64,000 nucleotides of DNA from Acidobacteriota bacterium (GTDB lineage Bacteria; Acidobacteriota; Thermoanaerobaculia; Gp7-AA8): the NCBI GenBank assembly GCA_019244185.1, contig JAFATB010000014.1:192001-256000 (forward strand), in the 5' to 3' direction. Shown here one piece after another: positions 17,442 to 24,104 of the stretch. Position numbers and translations under genes: made by a program. The notes beneath the pieces were generated by a model, which did no database searches, was not told the origin of the DNA, and was given only the letters and a program-made list of their open reading frames with translations. The first letter of the stretch is position 1. Each line of letters opens with the position of its first letter.

Positions 17442-18875
17442 ATGACTCTCTTCCTCGTGATCTTCGGTGCTCTCGCGTTCGCGGCCGTCGTGGTTCTGGC
17501 CGTTCTTCTTCGCAGTCAAACCCTTCAGCGAAATCAACTGGTCGAGCGATTCCGCGGTGTCGTCGATGCGGATGCGGAACGCAAGCGCGTCCTCGCTGAG
17601 CTCGAACGCGAGCAAAACGCGGCGCGCTCTGAGACCGAGCGGCAGCGCGCCGAGGCCGCGGCGCAGCTCGCGTCGATCCGCAACCAGACCGCCTCGGATG
17701 CGCAACAACTGGCTGAGCTCCAGCGGAACATTCAGGGCCTGCGTGCGGAATTCGCGGCCCTCGATGAGGAGGCGAATCTCCAGTCGTTCGGCTTCTACAA
17801 ACCGCATTACGCGTTTGCGGACTCAGCGCACTACGCGGCAGAGCTGGAGCGCATTTGCGACGCGCAGAAAGAAATGCTGAAACAGAAGCGCGCCGCCGTC
17901 TGCCAAAGCGAGTGGACCGTGAACGGCAGCAAGGCCGAAGGTCGCAAGCAGGTGAATCAAACCCTCAAGTTGATGCTGCGCGCGTTCAATGGCGAATGCG
18001 ACGCGGCCATCGCCAAGGTCCGCTACAACAACGTCCACGTCATGGAAACGCGGATCAACAAAGCGTACGACGTCATCAACAGCCTCGCCGAGGTGCAGCG
18101 TTGCGACATCACGCGCGAGTACCGCGAGCTGAAGTTGCAGGAACTCCGGCTGGTGCACGAGTACGAGGAGAAGCTGCAGGAAGAAAAAGAAGAGCAGCGC
18201 CGGATCCGCGAGCAGATGCGCGACGACGAGATCGCGCAACGGGAGCTGGAGAAGGCGCGCCTCGACGCGGAGCGGGAAGAACAGCGTTACGAGAAGGCGC
18301 TCGCGAAGGCGCGGGAAGAAGCCGAGCGTGCGGTGGGCGCGAAACAGGAGAAGCTGCTGAGCGAGATCGACGCACTGCGGCAGCGGCTCGCGGAAGCACA
18401 GGCGAACAAGGAGCGTGCGATTGCGCGCGCGCAGATGACGCGTTCAGGGCACGTCTACGTGATCTCGAACGTCGGCTCTTTCGGTGAGCACGTCTACAAG
18501 ATCGGTATGACGCGGCGGCTCGATCCGATGGACCGCATCCGCGAGCTCGGCGACGCGTCCGTGCCTTTTCAGTTCGACGTGCACGCCGTCCTGTTCAGCG
18601 AAGATGCTCCGGCTCTCGAGAATCGGCTGCATCGCGCATTTCACCAGCGCCGCGTGAATCGCATCAATGAACGGAAAGAGTTTTTCCGCGCGACCATCGA
18701 CGAGATCATCACCACGGTCCAGCAGCATCACGGCGACGAGATCACGGTGACGCGTGCGGCGGAGGCGACCGAGTATCGCAAGACGCTCGCGCTGCTCGAA
18801 GCGGAACGTCAGCAGACTGCGACGCTGCCGATTCGCGAGGCCCCGGCGCCGGTGCGTTCCGTCGCCGCGGTCTGA
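17442..18875 (+). CDS. DUF4041 + T5orf172 (GIY-YIG-like) coiled-coil membrane-anchored protein
   Basis: N-terminal TM, LMLRAFNGECD, GHVYVISNVGSFGEHVYKIGMTRR, ELGDASVPFQFDVH, RKEFF. Confidence 0.85.
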   Translation: MTLFLVIFGALAFAAVVVLAVLLRSQTLQRNQLVERFRGVVDADAERKRVLAELEREQNAARSETERQRAEAAAQLASIRNQTASDAQQLAELQRNIQGLRAEFAALDEEANLQSFGFYKPHYAFADSAHYAAELERICDAQKEMLKQKRAAVCQSEWTVNGSKAEGRKQVNQTLKLMLRAFNGECDAAIAKVRYNNVHVMETRINKAYDVINSLAEVQRCDITREYRELKLQELRLVHEYEEKLQEEKEEQRRIREQMRDDEIAQRELEKARLDAEREEQRYEKALAKAREEAERAVGAKQEKLLSEIDALRQRLAEAQANKERAIARAQMTRSGHVYVISNVGSFGEHVYKIGMTRRLDPMDRIRELGDASVPFQFDVHAVLFSEDAPALENRLHRAFHQRRVNRINERKEFFRATIDEIITTVQQHHGDEITVTRAAEATEYRKTLALLEAERQQTATLPIREAPAPVRSVAAV

Positions 18876-18878
18876 CGC

Positions 18879-19475
18879 CTACGACACGATTTCCAGCTCC
18901 GCGACCGTCGAACGCAGCTCGCGCGGGAGCCAGCAGTACGGGCCGATTTGCGTGAAGCCGGCTTTGCGGAACGTGTTGCGGTAGAACGCGGCGGGACGGC
19001 GCATGAGGCCGTCGAGGTCGCCCACGATGTCGTCTTCTTTCGTGAGGACTTCGAGGAAGGCGAGGCCGTCGCATGCTTTCGCGATCGCGGCGATGCCGGG
19101 GCGGATGTCGCGCTCGGCGACGTAGTGCAGGACGTCGGAGCAGATGACGAGATCGTGGACACCGAGGTCGAGGGAGGGGAGCTCGTGGAAGGCGGCCTTG
19201 TGGATGTTGCGCGTGCGGCCGAAGCGCTCGACGGCGTAGTCGGAAGGATCGAGTCCGGTGTACTCGATGCGGCTGCGCAGCGCGCGGAGATGCGGGAGCC
19301 ACGCGCCTTCGCCGCAGCCGACGTCGAGCACGCTGCGCAGCGGGCGGCGCATCACGTACTCGGCCATGGCCACGGCGAGCGCCACCTTGCGGCGCACCTC
19401 GAGGTGCGAGTTCACGCGCGTGTCGGGGCGGTGGTACCAGCGTTCGAAATACGCGCGGTCGTACTCTTTGGGCAT
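18879..19475 (-). CDS. Class I SAM-dependent methyltransferase
   Basis: VLDVGCGEG motif I, GLDPS, LVICSDVLHY. Confidence 0.85.
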   Translation of the reverse strand: MPKEYDRAYFERWYHRPDTRVNSHLEVRRKVALAVAMAEYVMRRPLRSVLDVGCGEGAWLPHLRALRSRIEYTGLDPSDYAVERFGRTRNIHKAAFHELPSLDLGVHDLVICSDVLHYVAERDIRPGIAAIAKACDGLAFLEVLTKEDDIVGDLDGLMRRPAAFYRNTFRKAGFTQIGPYCWLPRELRSTVAELEIVS

Positions 19476-19489
19476 CGGCGCGAATCGTA

Positions 19490-20377
19490 TTACGGCTGCC
19501 TGGTCGCGTAGGCGACGAGGCGGAACTGGCGGATCGGCGCGGCGCTCGGCGTGAGGCACGTGGCGTACGCCGACTCGACCGCGGTGTAGTGCTCGAGCGT
19601 GACCTCGTGGATCGTGCCGCTGTTGTCGCGCAGCTCGATGCGCGTGTGGCCGTCGACGAGCGACTCGCGGCTGACGAAGTGCAGGGCGTCGCGCGCGTGC
19701 AGGCTCGTGGCGCGGCGGACGAACGTCTCCGCCGCCTGTACCGGACGCGAGACGGAGCTGCGCCCGCGATACGACGGCAGGAGGATCTCGTCGCGCGCGA
19801 TCGAGGCTACGAGCTCGTTCGCCTGCGACGGCTCGACCGGGCCGTAGTAGAGACCCCACGGCAGCACGAGCGCGTTCGCGGCGAAGCGATCGCCGCCGAT
19901 GTGCGAGCACTGCCAGACGTCGATGCCGTCGTAGTGGCGCAGCGCGTCGTAGAGCGGATAGCCGCGGCGGCCGCAACAGGAGTCGTGCTGGCCGTGCGTG
20001 CAGACGAGGACGAGCGGCTTCGCGACCGGCGCGATCTCATCGCGCAGCGCCTCGAACGAGAAGGTCGCCAGCTCGTCGATCGAGTCGAGGTCGCGCATCG
20101 CGACGCCGGGATGGGGCGTGCTGCGCGCGACGTAGACGCGGATCGGGCCGAGGCATTCGTTGCGGCGGCGGATGAAGACGACGCGGCTGCGCTGGATCGC
20201 GCGCGTGGCGCGGAGCAGCGCGGTGCGGGCCGCGGGCGGCATCGCCGCGTCGGACATCGGCTCGCGTCCCCAGGTGATCGGCAGTTCGACGAGGATCCAG
20301 AGATCGACGCGCGCGGCGCTGGCGATGTTGTCGTCGCCGCGCAACCGCGCGGCGTCGGAGCAGAACGGGCGCCTCAC
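19490..20377 (-). CDS. Sucrase/ferredoxin-like (thioredoxin-fold [2Fe-2S]) protein
   Basis: WILVELPITWG, LVCTHGQHDSCC, WQCSHIGGDRFAAN, LPWGLYYG, YRGRS; GTG start overlaps the JmjC stop (GTGA). Confidence 0.85.
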   Translation of the reverse strand: MRRPFCSDAARLRGDDNIASAARVDLWILVELPITWGREPMSDAAMPPAARTALLRATRAIQRSRVVFIRRRNECLGPIRVYVARSTPHPGVAMRDLDSIDELATFSFEALRDEIAPVAKPLVLVCTHGQHDSCCGRRGYPLYDALRHYDGIDVWQCSHIGGDRFAANALVLPWGLYYGPVEPSQANELVASIARDEILLPSYRGRSSVSRPVQAAETFVRRATSLHARDALHFVSRESLVDGHTRIELRDNSGTIHEVTLEHYTAVESAYATCLTPSAAPIRQFRLVAYATRQP

Positions 20378-21603
20378 GCGTCCGGCTCGCCCGTCACGTT
20401 GACGAGCCCCTGCCGCGCGAGGTCCGCGACGAACTGCTGCACGGCGTCGGGCGCGAGCGCATCGCCGGCCGCGGTGCAAAGCTCGGCGACCGTCGCGGGA
20501 CCGCGCGCGAGCGTGTGCAGCAGCGGCTCGGTCGCGGCCGCGAACTGCCACGCGCGGCCGTTCGCGTCGAAGCGGATCGCGTCGGCGTCGCGGACGATGT
20601 GCAGTTCGCGCGGTGCGGCGAGCATCACGCGCGCATCGAGCGGCAGCGCCGTCGCATCGGCAACGCTCCACGGCAGATTCGCCCAGCCGCGCGAACGCGC
20701 GCGTACGTCGTGATGCGCGAAGTAGCGTGCGAGCAGCTCGTCGTCGAGCTGGTCGACGAGTTGGCGGCGCAGTTTCGCGAACTGCTCCCTGCGTTCGTCA
20801 TCGGATGCGAAGCGTCGCAGCGGCGCGCGAAAGTCGGTCGACGCGCGCAGCTGATCGCCGAGCCAGTGCACGAGATTGACGCCCGTGCGCTGGTGGATGC
20901 CGAACGTGAGATGCAGCGTGACCTCGCCGACGCCCGACGCCTCGTGCCACCAGCCGCGCGGGATGTAGAGCGCGTCGCCGTCTTCGAGCAATCCTTCCCA
21001 TACGACCTTGTCGGGCGCGGTCTTGTTCGGCGCGATGTCGTCTTTCAGCGGATGCGGACGTCCGCCCTCGTACACGCGCCAGTACTTTTTCCCGTAGACC
21101 TGCAGCACCACGACGTCGTGCGTGTCGCAGTGGCGGTTGAAGCCCTGCTGCTCGCGCCATCCCGCGTACAGATTCACCTGCACGGCTTCATGCAGCACCC
21201 GCTCGAAATCCTCGGCCAGCCGCATCACGCCATCGGCCATGTCGTCGACCGCGTCGATGATCAGCGTGTAGCCGTCGCGCAGCCGTTCGGCGAGCTTCTC
21301 CGGCACGACGAACGGCACGCGTCCGCCGTCGTAGCGGAGATACGCGTTCTTCGGCGCGAACTCTCCCTTGCGCACGAGGCGCAGGCGCGGCGGCTCGAGG
21401 CGGTGCTTCTGCAGCATCGCATTCACTTCATCCCACGAGAGCAGCGACTGGAAGCGCCCGCGCTCGCCGGGGAGATGCGCGAACGTGCGGCCCCAGACGC
21501 GCGTGAGGAAGTCATCGGCGCCGTTCGCGCCGATGACTTCCGTGAAACTCGTGCCGCGTGACGCGACGTCAGGCGTTGTCGGTGCCGTCGGAGTCACCGC
21601 CAT
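20374..21603 (-). CDS. JmjC/Cupin_4 Fe(II)/2-oxoglutarate oxygenase (YcfD/ROXA/NO66-like); start uncertain (ATG 21603 or ACG 21552)
   Basis: VNLY, GFNRHCDTHDVVVLQVYGKKYW (HxD plus 2OG-binding Lys), GDALYIPRGWWH, HLTFG; C-terminal winged-helix-like region. Confidence 0.88.
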   Translation of the reverse strand: MAVTPTAPTTPDVASRGTSFTEVIGANGADDFLTRVWGRTFAHLPGERGRFQSLLSWDEVNAMLQKHRLEPPRLRLVRKGEFAPKNAYLRYDGGRVPFVVPEKLAERLRDGYTLIIDAVDDMADGVMRLAEDFERVLHEAVQVNLYAGWREQQGFNRHCDTHDVVVLQVYGKKYWRVYEGGRPHPLKDDIAPNKTAPDKVVWEGLLEDGDALYIPRGWWHEASGVGEVTLHLTFGIHQRTGVNLVHWLGDQLRASTDFRAPLRRFASDDERREQFAKLRRQLVDQLDDELLARYFAHHDVRARSRGWANLPWSVADATALPLDARVMLAAPRELHIVRDADAIRFDANGRAWQFAAATEPLLHTLARGPATVAELCTAAGDALAPDAVQQFVADLARQGLVNVTGEPDA

Positions 21604-21871
21604 CGGTGCCGTCGTCGTCTCCTTCTTCGTCATCGTCGGCCGCGTCGCCGTCTTCGCCGTCGGTGCCGTCACCGTCGGTGCCGTCGCCTTCGCCGGCGTC
21701 GCCGTCTTCACCGTCGGTGCCGTCGCCGTCCGTGCCGTCGGCGTCGCCGCCGTCGGTGCCATCCGAATCGCCGCCCGGCTTCTTGCCGGGCGCGTCGGAA
21801 CCAGCGGTGGCGGCGAGCATCACGGCATCCAAATCGCGAATCTCATCGATCAACTGCATCTCTTCGCTCAT
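21569..21871 (-). CDS. 100-aa Asp/Gly-rich repeat peptide; putative RiPP-like precursor or oxygenase substrate
   Basis: GGAGG RBS 5 nt before ATG; 34-aa N-terminal segment, then a 66-aa core with 7 DGTD motifs and 26 Asp. Confidence 0.8.
   Translation of the reverse strand: MSEEMQLIDEIRDLDAVMLAATAGSDAPGKKPGGDSDGTDGGDADGTDGDGTDGEDGDAGEGDGTDGDGTDGEDGDAADDDEEGDDDGTDGGDSDGTDNA
21575..21765. repeat. Coding tandem repeats (GACGGCACCGAY units; 54-nt period duplication)
   Basis: Repeated ccgtcggtgccgtc on the + strand, encoding DGTDG. Confidence 0.85.
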
Positions 21872-21902
21872 GCAAACCTCCAAATCAGATGAACCCGACG
21901 CG

Positions 21903-21919
21903 TGCAGTGCTCGGGCCAA
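21903..21919 (-). promoter_or_regulatory. sigma54 (-24/-12) promoter of the peptide-JmjC operon
   Basis: Minus strand TTGGCCCGAGCACTGCA versus consensus YTGGCACGRNNNTTGCW; about 30 nt upstream of the ATG. Confidence 0.65.
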
Positions 21920-21922
21920 ATG

Positions 21923-21950
21923 CAAAGGACGGCCCGGGGGCCGCCCTTTT
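21923..21950 (-). terminator. Intrinsic terminator-like hairpin insulating the peptide operon from the upstream gene
   Basis: Minus strand AAAGGGCGGCC-CCCG-GGCCGTCCTTT followed by GCATTT. Confidence 0.6.
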
Positions 21951-21973
21951 CCGACTGCACCGCGCGCGACATT

Positions 21974-22342
21974 CTAGAGGGTTGCCCGCGCCACCGCGTG
22001 TGAATTCGGCGTGCGGCCGTAGCGCTGCGTGGCCCAGCCGACGATCGCGCCGACGGCGCTGCCGGGAAGCATGACTTCCCAGAAATACTTGCCGCCCTGC
22101 ATGGCCACGATGCCGTACGCGAGCAGCGCGCCGACGGCGAGTCCGAACGCGATTCCGGCGGCGACGTTCTGCACCTTGCGCGCGAACCATCCCGCGGCGA
22201 TGCCGGCGATGATGCCTTTGAAGGTGGAGCCGATGACGATGCCGATGATGGCCGCGCGCACCTCCGGCGTGAACCACGCCGTCATTCCGTCGAGCGCGCC
22301 GAGGATGGCGCCGAGCACGATTCCGAGCAGTACTTTGTTCAT
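21974..22342 (-). CDS. Small 4-TM Gly-rich membrane protein
   Basis: Four hydrophobic segments; GGAGG RBS. Confidence 0.75.
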   Translation of the reverse strand: MNKVLLGIVLGAILGALDGMTAWFTPEVRAAIIGIVIGSTFKGIIAGIAAGWFARKVQNVAAGIAFGLAVGALLAYGIVAMQGGKYFWEVMLPGSAVGAIVGWATQRYGRTPNSHAVARATL

Positions 22343-22399: not shown

Positions 22400-23296
22400 C
22401 TAACGATGCACCGCGATGAGGACGATGACGCGCATGATGAGGTACGCGACGACGACGGCGACGAGCGCGCGGTTGCGCGCGAGCCAGCGTCCCGCGCGTT
22501 CGAAAGCGTTCTCGCGATACGCGGCGAGCGGCGCGCCGTCGAGGTAGCGGACGAGGTCTGCCGCGAGCTCGCCGGCATTCGCGTAACGCGCATCGCGATC
22601 GGCGGCGGTGGCCTTGTCGATGATTGCGCGCAGGAGTTTCGGCGGCGCGACGAGGAGCGCGCGCAGCATCGCGCCGAGGGCGTAGACGTCGGCGCGCGCG
22701 TCGACCGGCTCGCCGCGTTCCTGTTCCGGCGCCATGAAGCCGCGCGTGCCGGCGAGGACGCGCGTGTTTGCGTCGACGCGTGATTCGTCGACGGTGCGAG
22801 CGACGCCCCAGTCCATCACCAGCACTTCGCCGAATGTACCGGTCATGACGTTCTGCGGTTTGAGATCGCAGTGCACGACGCCGCGCGCGTGCGCCAGCGC
22901 GACCGCCTCGCAGACGCGAAGCAGGATGCGCAGGAGCTCGGTCGTGCCGCACGCGAGCTCGTCGAGGCGCTGCCCGCGCACGAGCTTCATCGCGTAATAG
23001 ATGCGGCCGTCCGCGAGCGTGCCCGCGTCATGGAGCGGCACGATTCCCGGGTGTTCGAGCCGCGCCACGACGCGCGCCTCCGCGCGCATGCGCTCCGCCG
23101 CCGCGGGACTCGCGGTTTCCGTCGCGAGGACTTTGATGGCGACGCGCCGATCGAGCTCGCGATCGTGCGCCTCGTAGACGACGCCCATGCCGCCGCGCCC
23201 GAGCTCGCGCACGAGGTCGTAGCGCGTGCCGGAAAAGTCGGGGAGCTCGGCCGCGTCGCGAAGGCGCCCGACGGCGGCGTCGGAGAGCCAGGTCAT
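22400..23296 (-). CDS. Hanks-type Ser/Thr protein kinase with C-terminal TM
   Basis: LGRGGMGVVY, VAIK, HCDLKPQN, MDWG, GTRGFMAPEQ, DVYALG. Confidence 0.92.
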   Translation of the reverse strand: MTWLSDAAVGRLRDAAELPDFSGTRYDLVRELGRGGMGVVYEAHDRELDRRVAIKVLATETASPAAAERMRAEARVVARLEHPGIVPLHDAGTLADGRIYYAMKLVRGQRLDELACGTTELLRILLRVCEAVALAHARGVVHCDLKPQNVMTGTFGEVLVMDWGVARTVDESRVDANTRVLAGTRGFMAPEQERGEPVDARADVYALGAMLRALLVAPPKLLRAIIDKATAADRDARYANAGELAADLVRYLDGAPLAAYRENAFERAGRWLARNRALVAVVVAYLIMRVIVLIAVHR

Positions 23297-23424
23297 GGGG
23301 CGGCTCCGGGTGGGGAGGGGGAGGGGGAGGGGGCGTGCGTGGCGGCGCGCCGCGTGCCGGAAAAGTCGGGGAGCTCCGCCGCATCGCGAAGGCGCGCGAC
23401 GGCGGCGTCGGAGAGCCAGGTCAT
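23223..23424 (-). repeat. Direct duplication of the first ~74 nt of the kinase gene, with a (CCCCCT)n spacer
   Basis: ATGACCTGGCTCTCCGAC...GGCACGCG starts at both 23424 and 23296; 3 mismatches. Confidence 0.9.
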
Positions 23425-24104
23425 GCATCCACTCCGAGAAGCGCGCGCACTTCCGCGCGGAACTCGCGCTCGGAGGCGGTGGCGTCGCGCAAGACGTCGA
23501 GCACGTGCTCACGAAAGTGGCGGCGCATCGCGGCGAGGCGGTTCGTCACCGTGGTCTCGCTCATGCCGAAGCGGGCGCCGAGCTCGCGGTACGACAGGCG
23601 CGCGTCGTCGAGGTCGTACGCCTGGAAGAGCGCGAAGTCGTCGTCGCGCGCGCCGGCGCGCAGTCGCTCGACGGCCACGCTGAACACGCTTCGCGCCCAT
23701 TCGCGCTGAAAGTACTCCTCGGGCGATCCGCCGCGGTCGTGCTCGCGCGCGAGCTCGGCTTCCGCCTCATCGAACGGCAGGTCCGCCGCGCCGCCGCCGC
23801 GTTTGAGGCGGCGCTCCGCCTTCATCTCATTGGCGAGATGGCGATCGAAGAGCAGGCGCAGGAACGTGCGGAAGCTCGCCTTCGCGGTGTCGTACGACGC
23901 GAGCGCGTTCTTCTCGAGCACGTATGCGAGAAAGCTCTGCGTGCGGTCTTCGGCATCGTCGCGGCGGTGGGCGATGCGCGCGTACTTGTAGAGCGGACGC
24001 CAGTAGATCGAGACCACCGCATCGAGGGCGCGCGCCCGTTCGAAAGCGTCAGTGCTGCCGAGGGCTTCGACCACGCTCCGGCGCGTCGTGGGGAAGAGGG
24101 ACAT
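23421..24104 (-). CDS. ECF-type sigma factor (kinase-associated, FPTT-type N-terminus)
   Basis: FPTTRRS, YWRPLYKY, DAEDRTQSF, SFRTFL, region-4 HTH; stop overlaps a kinase-like ATG. Confidence 0.82.
   Translation of the reverse strand: MSLFPTTRRSVVEALGSTDAFERARALDAVVSIYWRPLYKYARIAHRRDDAEDRTQSFLAYVLEKNALASYDTAKASFRTFLRLLFDRHLANEMKAERRLKRGGGAADLPFDEAEAELAREHDRGGSPEEYFQREWARSVFSVAVERLRAGARDDDFALFQAYDLDDARLSYRELGARFGMSETTVTNRLAAMRRHFREHVLDVLRDATASEREFRAEVRALLGVDA

Follow-up and report, generated by a model that had tools for sequence, protein, structure and literature searches.

JmjC hydroxylases of the ribosomal oxygenase (ROX) branch act by C3 hydroxylation of their target residues, and Asp hydroxylation within a peptide that is made ribosomally and then modified post-translationally (RiPP) is reportedly carried out by CinX. 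Among described RiPP systems, JmjC-type hydroxylases include TcaO, a PF08007 enzyme in the cluster for the thioamitide thiocupinamide (bioRxiv 10.64898/2026.01.07.698260), BipG in that for biphenomycin (PMC12707348), and CzlI in that for curacozole (PMC11575548). MppG, from the Moorena mpp cluster, is an alpha-ketoglutarate hydroxylase with a fused RiPP recognition element (RRE) that works in a leader-dependent, processive manner (bioRxiv 10.64898/2026.10.04.756588), and SmaO, an Fe/2-oxoglutarate (2OG) enzyme, hydroxylates Asp in a DGDG core, after which SmaX gives aminomalonate (PMC12186529). JmjC tailoring of RiPPs, the fusion of a hydroxylase to an RRE (MppG), and Asp hydroxylation in RiPPs (SmaO) are already known. 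We report here on an apparently undescribed cassette, which has representatives among soil bacteria from at least two phyla. It lies in a 64-kb stretch of DNA from an Acidobacteriota bacterium (contig JAFATB010000014.1, positions 192,001 to 256,000; hereafter, the window), with all of its genes and signals on the minus strand, and encodes a short acidic repeat peptide, a ROX-type JmjC oxygenase, and a sucrase-ferredoxin-like (Suc_Fer-like) protein. We argue that this is probably a leader-guided, self-contained, RiPP-like peptide-modification cassette without protease or exporter, in which JmjC oxidizes, and most likely beta-hydroxylates, Asp residues of the peptide core. Its parts are as follows, in positions of the window.

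21569-21871, minus strand: precursor-like peptide gene with an ATG start, encoding 100 aa with a net charge of about -35
21818-21859, minus strand: leader segment, residues 5-18, MQLIDEIRDLDAVM, with predicted contact to the C-terminal domain of JmjC
21572-21769, minus strand: core, residues 35-100 of the translation, with D-x-D-G-T-D repeats and the end DGTDNA
20374-21603, minus strand: gene for the ROX-type JmjC Fe(II)/2OG oxygenase, start uncertain (ATG 21603 or 21633)
20875-21207, minus strand: JmjC_2 catalytic domain (Pfam match) with H158, D160, K173, and H231, numbered from ATG 21603
20392-20631, minus strand: C-terminal winged-helix domain of the JmjC model, residues 325-404, a predicted leader-binding RRE-like module
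19490-20377, minus strand: gene for the Suc_Fer-like three-domain protein (PF06999), 295 aa, GTG start
residues 22-118 of that protein, minus strand: N-terminal thioredoxin-like domain, from the model
19733-20023, minus strand: thioredoxin-like ferredoxin domain, residues 119-215, by structural match, with C126-X8-C135 ... H159-x-G-G-D163

The case for a functional unit begins with its conservation. A species-level genome collection yielded 332 JmjC relatives, the best 80 of which were analyzed; all are from Acidobacteriota, with L001-L024 of a Thermoanaerobaculia type (65-79% identity) and L025-L080 of a Pyrinomonadaceae/Blastocatellia type (40-46% identity). A Suc_Fer homolog lies directly 3' of JmjC in 80/80 of these loci, and by tblastn an acidic open reading frame (ORF) lies directly 5' of it in 77/80. 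Among the three exceptions, L064 carries an ORF of 52 aa that includes one DNDGSD unit, and in another (L049) the contig ends 31 nt before the JmjC match; the third (L018), on a contig with a coverage of 1.1, has no acidic ORF. An acidic repeat peptide precedes JmjC, then, in 78 of the 79 Acidobacteriota loci that are assessable. When all ORFs lying no more than about 5 kb from the cassette were clustered over 81 loci, no further conserved family emerged, protease and exporter included, in line with what an earlier sequence-only reading of the stretch had said of the window. That reading had also proposed looking across phyla for a D/G-rich ORF beside such JmjC/Suc_Fer pairs, and the pattern holds both in Acidobacteriota and, as described next, in 14-15 of 15 actinobacterial loci.

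The same association was approached from the Suc_Fer side, using a profile built from 84 representatives with the H-x-G-G-H motif. The 80 loci fetched in this way are from Chloroflexota, Actinomycetota, Thermodesulfobacteriota, Myxococcota, Pseudomonadota, and Acidobacteriota. A JmjC gene adjoins Suc_Fer in 27/27 loci with the H-x-G-G-D form (upstream on the same strand in 16, convergent in 11), in 0/49 with the H-x-G-G-H form, and in 0/4 lacking a recognizable motif. Twelve of the H-x-G-G-D loci are from Acidobacteriota and 15 from Actinomycetota. In the latter, an acidic peptide with a TLxD(D/E)EIxT leader and a D-x-[TS/D]-D core stands before JmjC in 14 of the 15 loci, and a 72-aa (DGGA)n ORF in the fifteenth (L161). 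Furthermore, Suc_Fer is convergent rather than co-directional in 11 actinobacterial loci, and the gene link therefore survives loss of the operon arrangement. On a quick Suc_Fer tree (midpoint root, support by the Shimodaira-Hasegawa-like approximate likelihood ratio test), the label "Asp form with JmjC" requires at least two changes, and 99% support is obtained for a sister relationship between the actinobacterial Asp/JmjC clade and a His/no-JmjC clade. The triad has stayed intact through two phyla, two types of promoter (see below), and two gene orientations.

The 100-aa peptide, whose N-terminus is MSEEMQLIDEIRDLDAVM, matches no Pfam or NCBIfam family, and its anatomy is that of a conserved leader motif followed by a repeat core of variable length. 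G+C at third codon positions in the leader is 0.79 in the peptide frame versus 0.67 and 0.45 in the other frames. The segment MQLIDEIRDLDAVM aligns with the conserved SGL(L/I)xxVxxL motif of the relatives, which takes the mutually alignable forms SGL(I/L)QD(V/I)R(D/E)L (Thermoanaerobaculia) and SGLLLSVEPL (Pyrinomonadaceae). The related peptides are 65-154 aa long, with 2-9 D-x-D-x-[TS]-D units per core. Past residue 35, the residue that follows Ser or Thr is Asp in 217 of 246 cases among the 24 peptides of the Thermoanaerobaculia type (from 23 loci and the window), 20 of which end in TDNA. Past position 40, both clades lack Cys and Trp, and the Thermoanaerobaculia type (n=24) lacks Phe, Tyr, and Ile as well. 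Asp is the only residue common to every type of core (DGTD, DxSD, DADGDD, DGGA). The locus has, in short, the precursor-type arrangement: a short peptide gene beside the gene for a modifying enzyme, a conserved leader, and a variable core. In one Pyrinomonadaceae contig (L110:2312-2641, a contig shared with L071), a second leader-bearing ORF was seen between the usual peptide and JmjC; its SDLLLSVEPL leader is followed by an unlike core, (DPIVED/E)n. This would be a case of two precursor genes with unlike cores serving one JmjC.

A predicted complex links this leader to the oxygenase. JmjC was modeled with peptide residues 1-60, each with its own alignment, and with three controls. The pair gave an ipSAE of 0.62, a mark attained by 58/80 solved complexes and 2/110 mismatched pairs, versus 0.00 for all three controls, with contact agreement between runs of at least 46%. 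The confident contacts join leader residues 5-18 to a JmjC strand (349-355) and helix (383-398); in the predicted docking mode, the leader is added as a strand beside the third strand and packed on the third helix of the C-terminal domain. RREs of RiPP enzymes hold their leaders by just such strand addition and third-helix packing. The model supports, short of demonstrating, binding of the peptide leader by the winged-helix domain, in a manner predicted to be RRE-like, and an enzyme-substrate, RiPP-like logic of peptide and JmjC is, at the level of prediction, well supported in silico.

The enzyme itself matches Pfam JmjC_2 (PF08007) with E 1.6e-24 and 86.3 bits, against a cut-off of 22. H158-x-D160, K173, and H231 are invariant in 51/51 aligned homologs; the triad residues align with the H-x-D and the LHLT His of NO66, and K173 with its 2OG-binding GRK Lys. 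The AlphaFold model has a predicted local distance difference test (pLDDT) score of 90.3, and its Foldseek matches to NO66, MINA53, and YcfD span the whole protein (E 1e-23 to 1e-17), with about 450 aligned columns for NO66 chains and about 400-420 for YcfD. As modeled, JmjC has the three-domain ROX architecture, consisting of JmjC, a helical (dimerization) domain, and a C-terminal winged helix whose elements run strand-strand-strand-helix-helix-helix. At the sequence level, this last domain gave no Pfam match to a PqqD-type RRE, the only matches being to MarR_2 and ROXA-like_wH, both below cut-off (for ROXA-like_wH, E 0.03 and 14.7 bits versus 22). A search for fused longer JmjC forms (717-2045 aa) found none, which is weak evidence. 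The interval from the peptide stop (21569) to the conserved N-terminal part of JmjC contains no ATG, GTG, or TTG; JmjC must therefore begin within the peptide gene, in a different frame, either at ATG 21603 or at ATG 21633. The same overlap is present in several relatives (e.g., L007, L017), and most others have an ATG 15-20 nt past the peptide stop.

One further feature of JmjC concerns residues 64-76, where HRL(D/E)xPRLRL is invariant in 51/51 cassette enzymes and falls in a gapped region of the NO66 alignment; as a basic insert specific to the family, it could touch the acidic core. A phylum sample yielded only two distant JmjC relatives, and neither qualifies as the same cassette. That of G110 (L086, C1:1183000-1190000; E 2.7e-61 to the profile) stands beside an 823-aa ATP-binding cassette transporter, with no Suc_Fer, a context that hints at a use of this JmjC clade in further peptide systems as well, with exported products. 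That of G279 (L087:2775-3971) follows an unassigned 349-aa ORF and has N-D-Q-D in place of H-x-D; it may be catalytically dead or repurposed.

The third member, the Suc_Fer-like protein, has a GTG start that overlaps the JmjC stop in the sequence GTGA (20374-20377). It matches PF06999 with E 1e-22 and 81.6 bits, against a cut-off of 34.9, and its model (pLDDT 92.2) has three parts. For the middle one, residues 119-215, the best match is the Aquifex [2Fe-2S] ferredoxin 1f37 (Z 7.9, root-mean-square deviation 2.6 over 91 residues). The C-terminal part is modeled as a beta-meander, and for the two end domains only generic thioredoxin-like and beta-meander matches were obtained (Foldseek, VIA; Z <6.3). 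C6, C126, C134, C135, H159, G161, G162, D163, and C274 are invariant. The motif C-X8-C ... H-x-G-G-H (H-X3-H) is that of the Apd1/Aim32 prototype; here, C126, C135, and H159 are present, and the last expected ligand position is Asp (D163) rather than His in 46/46 aligned cassette proteins. The family at large comprises 5154 representative clusters (50% identity) at E <= 0.001, the best 150 all being full length. It contains both the H-x-G-G-D and the H-x-G-G-H forms, and its members carry only the public names "sucrase ferredoxin" or "hypothetical protein".

From these observations we infer a substrate relationship of peptide and JmjC, an Asp target, hydroxylation, metal binding, and a role for the Suc_Fer-like protein, which together make up the following model. 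The 100-aa product would consist of a leader of about 30 residues and a core of D-x-D-G-T-D repeats. JmjC, with its ROX fold of JmjC, helical, and C-terminal winged-helix domains, would grip the leader by strand addition to the winged helix and so feed the acidic core into the Fe(II)/2OG site, where side chains would be oxidized repeatedly, with Asp most likely being hydroxylated at C3 (beta). This would give an acidic poly-hydroxy-Asp peptide that plausibly binds cations (Fe, Ca) inside the cell, and the coupled Suc_Fer-like partner would either keep the oxygenase iron reduced or perform a second step on the modified peptide. Given that neither a protease nor an exporter is conserved, the product is probably retained in the cell at full length. 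The broader claim, that JmjC is dedicated to leader-guided modification of the peptide, is likely. Repeated Asp beta-hydroxylation, taken alone, is by analogy the most likely chemistry, with a chance somewhat short of even; it is favored because Asp is common to all cores, because this enzyme branch hydroxylates C3, and because SmaO offers a precedent.

A number of points weigh against this model. There is no conserved protease or exporter across 81 loci, unlike in most RiPP clusters. In the predicted complex only the leader is confidently placed, no core residue is docked in the JmjC active site, and the peptide's own fold is uncertain (pLDDT 42-45). The targets known for characterized ROX enzymes are Arg or His residues in ribosomal proteins rather than Asp, and the titles of the matched PDB entries are consistent with this. 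No RNA run is among the public runs listed as containing the stretch. The 12 Acidobacteriota H-x-G-G-D loci come from the two clades of the first set, several of them on contigs already sampled, and because kin share labels, the covariation of motif and neighbor represents a few independent events and not 76 observations. The cassette JmjC is patchy, occurring in 3/401 genomes of a phylum sample at E <= 1e-60 and in 0/7 genomes of the same family. Finally, the second His of the Apd1/Aim32-type site is absent from the Suc_Fer-like motif, and 2OG oxygenases need no external electron donor, so that simple hydroxylation does not explain a ferredoxin partner. That the changed metal motif of Suc_Fer tracks JmjC suggests one of two roles: rescuing JmjC iron that becomes oxidized while the substrate is a strong chelator, or carrying out a further chemical step.

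The last of these options leads to an alternative in which JmjC does modify the peptide, with another target or chemistry: Thr/Ser or Gly oxidation, desaturation, or hydroxylation followed by a second step by Suc_Fer (e.g., C-C cleavage to an aminomalonate-type residue, as with SmaO/SmaX). Here one would cite [ST]-D, the best-kept dipeptide in Acidobacteriota (the 217/246 noted above), and the presence of H-x-G-G-D beside JmjC in 27/27 versus 0/49 loci, which suits a specialized role over generic electron transfer; moreover, a two-enzyme cascade from Asp through hydroxy-Asp to aminomalonate on DG motifs is known from SmaO/SmaX (PMC12186529). However, the (DGGA)n and Gaiellaceae-type cores contain little or no Ser/Thr, leaving Asp as the shared residue, and the Suc_Fer-like protein, unlike SmaX, has no HD domain and finds its best structural matches among thioredoxin-like ferredoxins, no catalysis by its family having been found in the literature examined. 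We regard this alternative as unlikely. A bolder proposal would make the cassette a new RiPP-like class, in which the winged helix of a ROX-type JmjC has turned into a leader-recognition element and the H-x-G-G-D Suc_Fer, more than an electron carrier, has co-evolved with JmjC, either as another iron enzyme or as its dedicated redox partner. Asp would then pass through beta-hydroxy-Asp to a further oxidized chelating residue (e.g., of a malonate type; compare SmaO/SmaX), yielding an intracellular poly-chelator for Fe, Ca, or lanthanides in soil Acidobacteriota and Actinomycetota. In this full form, the proposal is quite unlikely.

Other explanations deny that the peptide is a substrate at all. 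If JmjC were an ordinary hydroxylase of a ribosomal or other protein, like YcfD/RoxA, the peptide could be a regulator, inhibitor, or chaperone seated on the winged helix, such as an acidic-surface or nucleic-acid mimic. The fold and domain order of JmjC are indeed those of NO66, MINA53, and YcfD, the only other JmjC_2 gene of the source genome encodes a 240-aa single-domain protein with no separate full-length YcfD-like gene found there, and the complex model shows leader binding without any core residue in the active site. Yet a distribution of 3/401 genomes suits an accessory more than a ribosomal function, and constraint at the level of the core repeat (D-x-D-G-T-D, [ST]-D) is seen in every lineage. 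Furthermore, a leader-plus-core precursor held by strand addition is how RiPP enzymes grip their substrates (compare MppG, bioRxiv 10.64898/2026.10.04.756588). We regard this first explanation as very doubtful. The small ORF might instead encode an unmodified, disordered acidic protein (a cation buffer, or one related to condensates or biominerals) that merely shares an operon with redox/oxygen enzymes. It matches no family, its composition resembles that of Ca-binding acidic repeat proteins, and the cassette lacks a protease and an exporter. Mere polyanions have no need of the conserved short N-terminal motif, however, and neither the predicted specific docking of that motif on JmjC nor three-gene adjacency through two phyla and a change of orientation would be expected of them, which makes this explanation highly improbable. 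The leader-guided modification of the acidic core by JmjC accordingly remains our preferred reading of the cassette.

The surroundings of the cassette bear on its expression. The following features of the window flank the three genes.

ends 21974, minus strand: unassigned 122-aa membrane-protein gene, upstream of the cassette
21924-21949, minus strand: terminator-like hairpin after that gene, with an 11-bp G+C-rich stem and a 4-nt loop, then UUUGCAUUU
21903-21918, minus strand: sigma54-type -24/-12 motif TGGCCC-N5-CTGCA, TGGCCCGAGCACTGCA, by pattern match and conservation in relatives
21877-21881, minus strand: ribosome-binding site GGAGG, with a 5-nt spacer to the peptide ATG (21871)
18879-19475, minus strand: class-I S-adenosylmethionine methyltransferase (Pfam Methyltransf_12/23/25), start 14 nt after the Suc_Fer stop

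The site TGGCCCGAGCACTGCA is the only match to TGGCNC-N6-TGCA within the window, where 0.35 are expected by chance; since 30/100 shuffles also give at least one match, it is weak evidence by itself. A form of the motif, TGGC(G/C)C-N5-(C/G)TGCA, is nevertheless present 25-41 nt before the peptide ATG in 22/23 Thermoanaerobaculia loci as well as in the window (L020, looked at from a wrongly chosen start, is left unassessed), and the source genome encodes rpoN (sigma54). Pyrinomonadaceae loci instead share an element of the sigma70 type, TTGT..-N17-TA(A/C)TAA(G/T)CT. Regulation therefore differs between the clades, and the three genes stay together nonetheless. A GGAGG-like site is retained in nearly all relatives. 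In 26 loci, all of the Pyrinomonadaceae type, a hybrid histidine kinase/response regulator is encoded upstream; an example, directly 5' of the peptide and on the same strand, is a 655-aa protein with HisKA, HATPase_c, and Response_reg domains (L027:2419-4386). This kinase may be a clade-specific regulator of the cassette.

The hairpin at 21924-21949 can be called only terminator-like, because the consensus terminator scanner made no call there; the scanner's sole call in the relevant region is on the plus strand inside the peptide gene, so that no relevant terminator was called. Downstream, the region 3' of the methyltransferase folds no better than shuffled sequences. As the methyltransferase begins 14 nt beyond Suc_Fer, the unit lacks insulation on its 3' side, and the two are probably co-transcribed in the source genome. 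A homolog of this enzyme was found in 0/80 related loci, and it was rejected as a conserved member of the cassette. It matches the NCBIfam model of the RiPP methyltransferase ApyS weakly (E 0.001, below cut-off) and may be a lineage-specific addition (e.g., for carboxyl methylation) or unrelated. As for the sequence itself, contigs of two public runs equal 19400-22000 with 0 differences and 0 gaps, making an assembly frameshift unlikely; the runs may be source samples.

With respect to the sequence-only reading, much of its layout holds. The 100-aa peptide gene (21569-21871) with GGAGG 5 nt before its ATG, the sigma54-type promoter motif (present likewise in 22/23 Thermoanaerobaculia loci, with rpoN in the genome), the intact HxD...H triad and Lys of JmjC (invariant in 51/51 and aligned to NO66), and the coupling of Suc_Fer to JmjC by a GTGA overlap were all correctly recognized. 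Its terminator exists as an 11-bp hairpin followed by UUUGCAUUU, without a call by the consensus scanner, and its placing of JmjC after the peptide is right as to order, with the qualification that the start of JmjC overlaps the 3' end of the peptide gene. The idea of an insulated operon was mistaken at the 3' end, where the methyltransferase follows after 14 nt. Its RiPP-like interpretation is partly supported, by synteny and by the leader/winged-helix model; iterative hydroxylation of Asp, metal binding by the product, and a [2Fe-2S] cluster in the Suc_Fer-like protein are its putative elements.

Three neighboring features were seen in passing. A 477-aa DUF4041 + MUG113/T5orf172 protein (17442-18875, plus strand) converges on the methyltransferase, their stops being 4 nt apart; GIY-YIG-like modules such as MUG113/T5orf172 are often found on mobile or defense-related DNA. 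Upstream of the cassette, at 22400-24104 on the minus strand, are a Ser/Thr protein kinase (Pkinase, E 1.4e-35) and a sigma factor of the extracytoplasmic function type, whose ORFs overlap as listed; neither is a conserved neighbor of the cassette. In addition, about 23028-23424 repeats part of the kinase N-terminal region, "TWLSDAAV.RLRDAAELPDFSGTR" and "DLALRRRRRAPSR.G.APRLFRHA" each occurring twice.

If our reading is true, bacterial relatives of the human ribosomal oxygenases would have a second, genetically defined class of substrates, and the ROX winged-helix domain could act as a leader-recognition element. For a subfamily of the large and functionally obscure Suc_Fer-like/Apd1 family, a concrete partner and a context would be assigned for the first time. 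As product one would have a ribosomal, repeat-encoded polyanion in which the number of modified sites is set by the number of repeats, an easily engineered scaffold for metal binding. Because the system is small, with three genes and no others conserved, it is directly testable by co-expression in E. coli. A literature search, which left supplementary gene-cluster tables outside its scope, found no description of the cassette and, among the papers listed, none joining a sucrase ferredoxin with JmjC.

Each of the described systems resembles one part of the cassette. The ROX enzymes (NO66, MINA53, E. coli YcfD/RoxA, Rhodothermus YcfD) share with its JmjC the JmjC_2 domain, the full-length fold, and the triad plus Lys; in contrast to them, the cassette enzyme, at about 20% identity, is always adjoined by an acidic peptide and a Suc_Fer-like gene, has a winged helix predicted to hold a leader, and carries the invariant PRLRL insert. 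The Apd1/Aim32-type proteins and the cassette Suc_Fer-like protein have in common PF06999, the thioredoxin-like ferredoxin fold, and C-X8-C ... H-x-G-G, whereas the latter differs by Asp at the last ligand position, a further thioredoxin-like domain at the N-terminus, and a beta-meander at the C-terminus. TcaO, BipG, and CzlI perform the Fe/2OG, JmjC-type hydroxylation of ribosomal precursor peptide residues that is predicted for the cassette; however, they are accessory to larger clusters with class-defining enzymes, proteases, or exporters and act on Ile, Orn, or Phe, whereas JmjC is the only recognizable modifying enzyme here and would face a poly-Asp repeat core. MppG likewise joins a hydroxylase domain to a leader-binding module with a three-stranded sheet, as predicted for JmjC, and differs in its long, structured Nif11-type leader, its Trp target, and its lanthipeptide context. 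SmaO/SmaX is alike in having an Fe/2OG enzyme that acts on Asp beside Gly, with an adjacent second iron-dependent partner, but that partner is an HD-domain protein, and the Sma cluster also has an ATP-grasp enzyme and an exporter of the peptidase-containing ATP-binding transporter type (PMC12186529). At the cassette loci no HD-domain (SmaX-like) gene is conserved, the only conserved partner being Suc_Fer-like. What is new in comparison with all of these is the combination: a sole modifying enzyme of ROX architecture, a poly-Asp repeat core, and an obligate H-x-G-G-D Suc_Fer partner.

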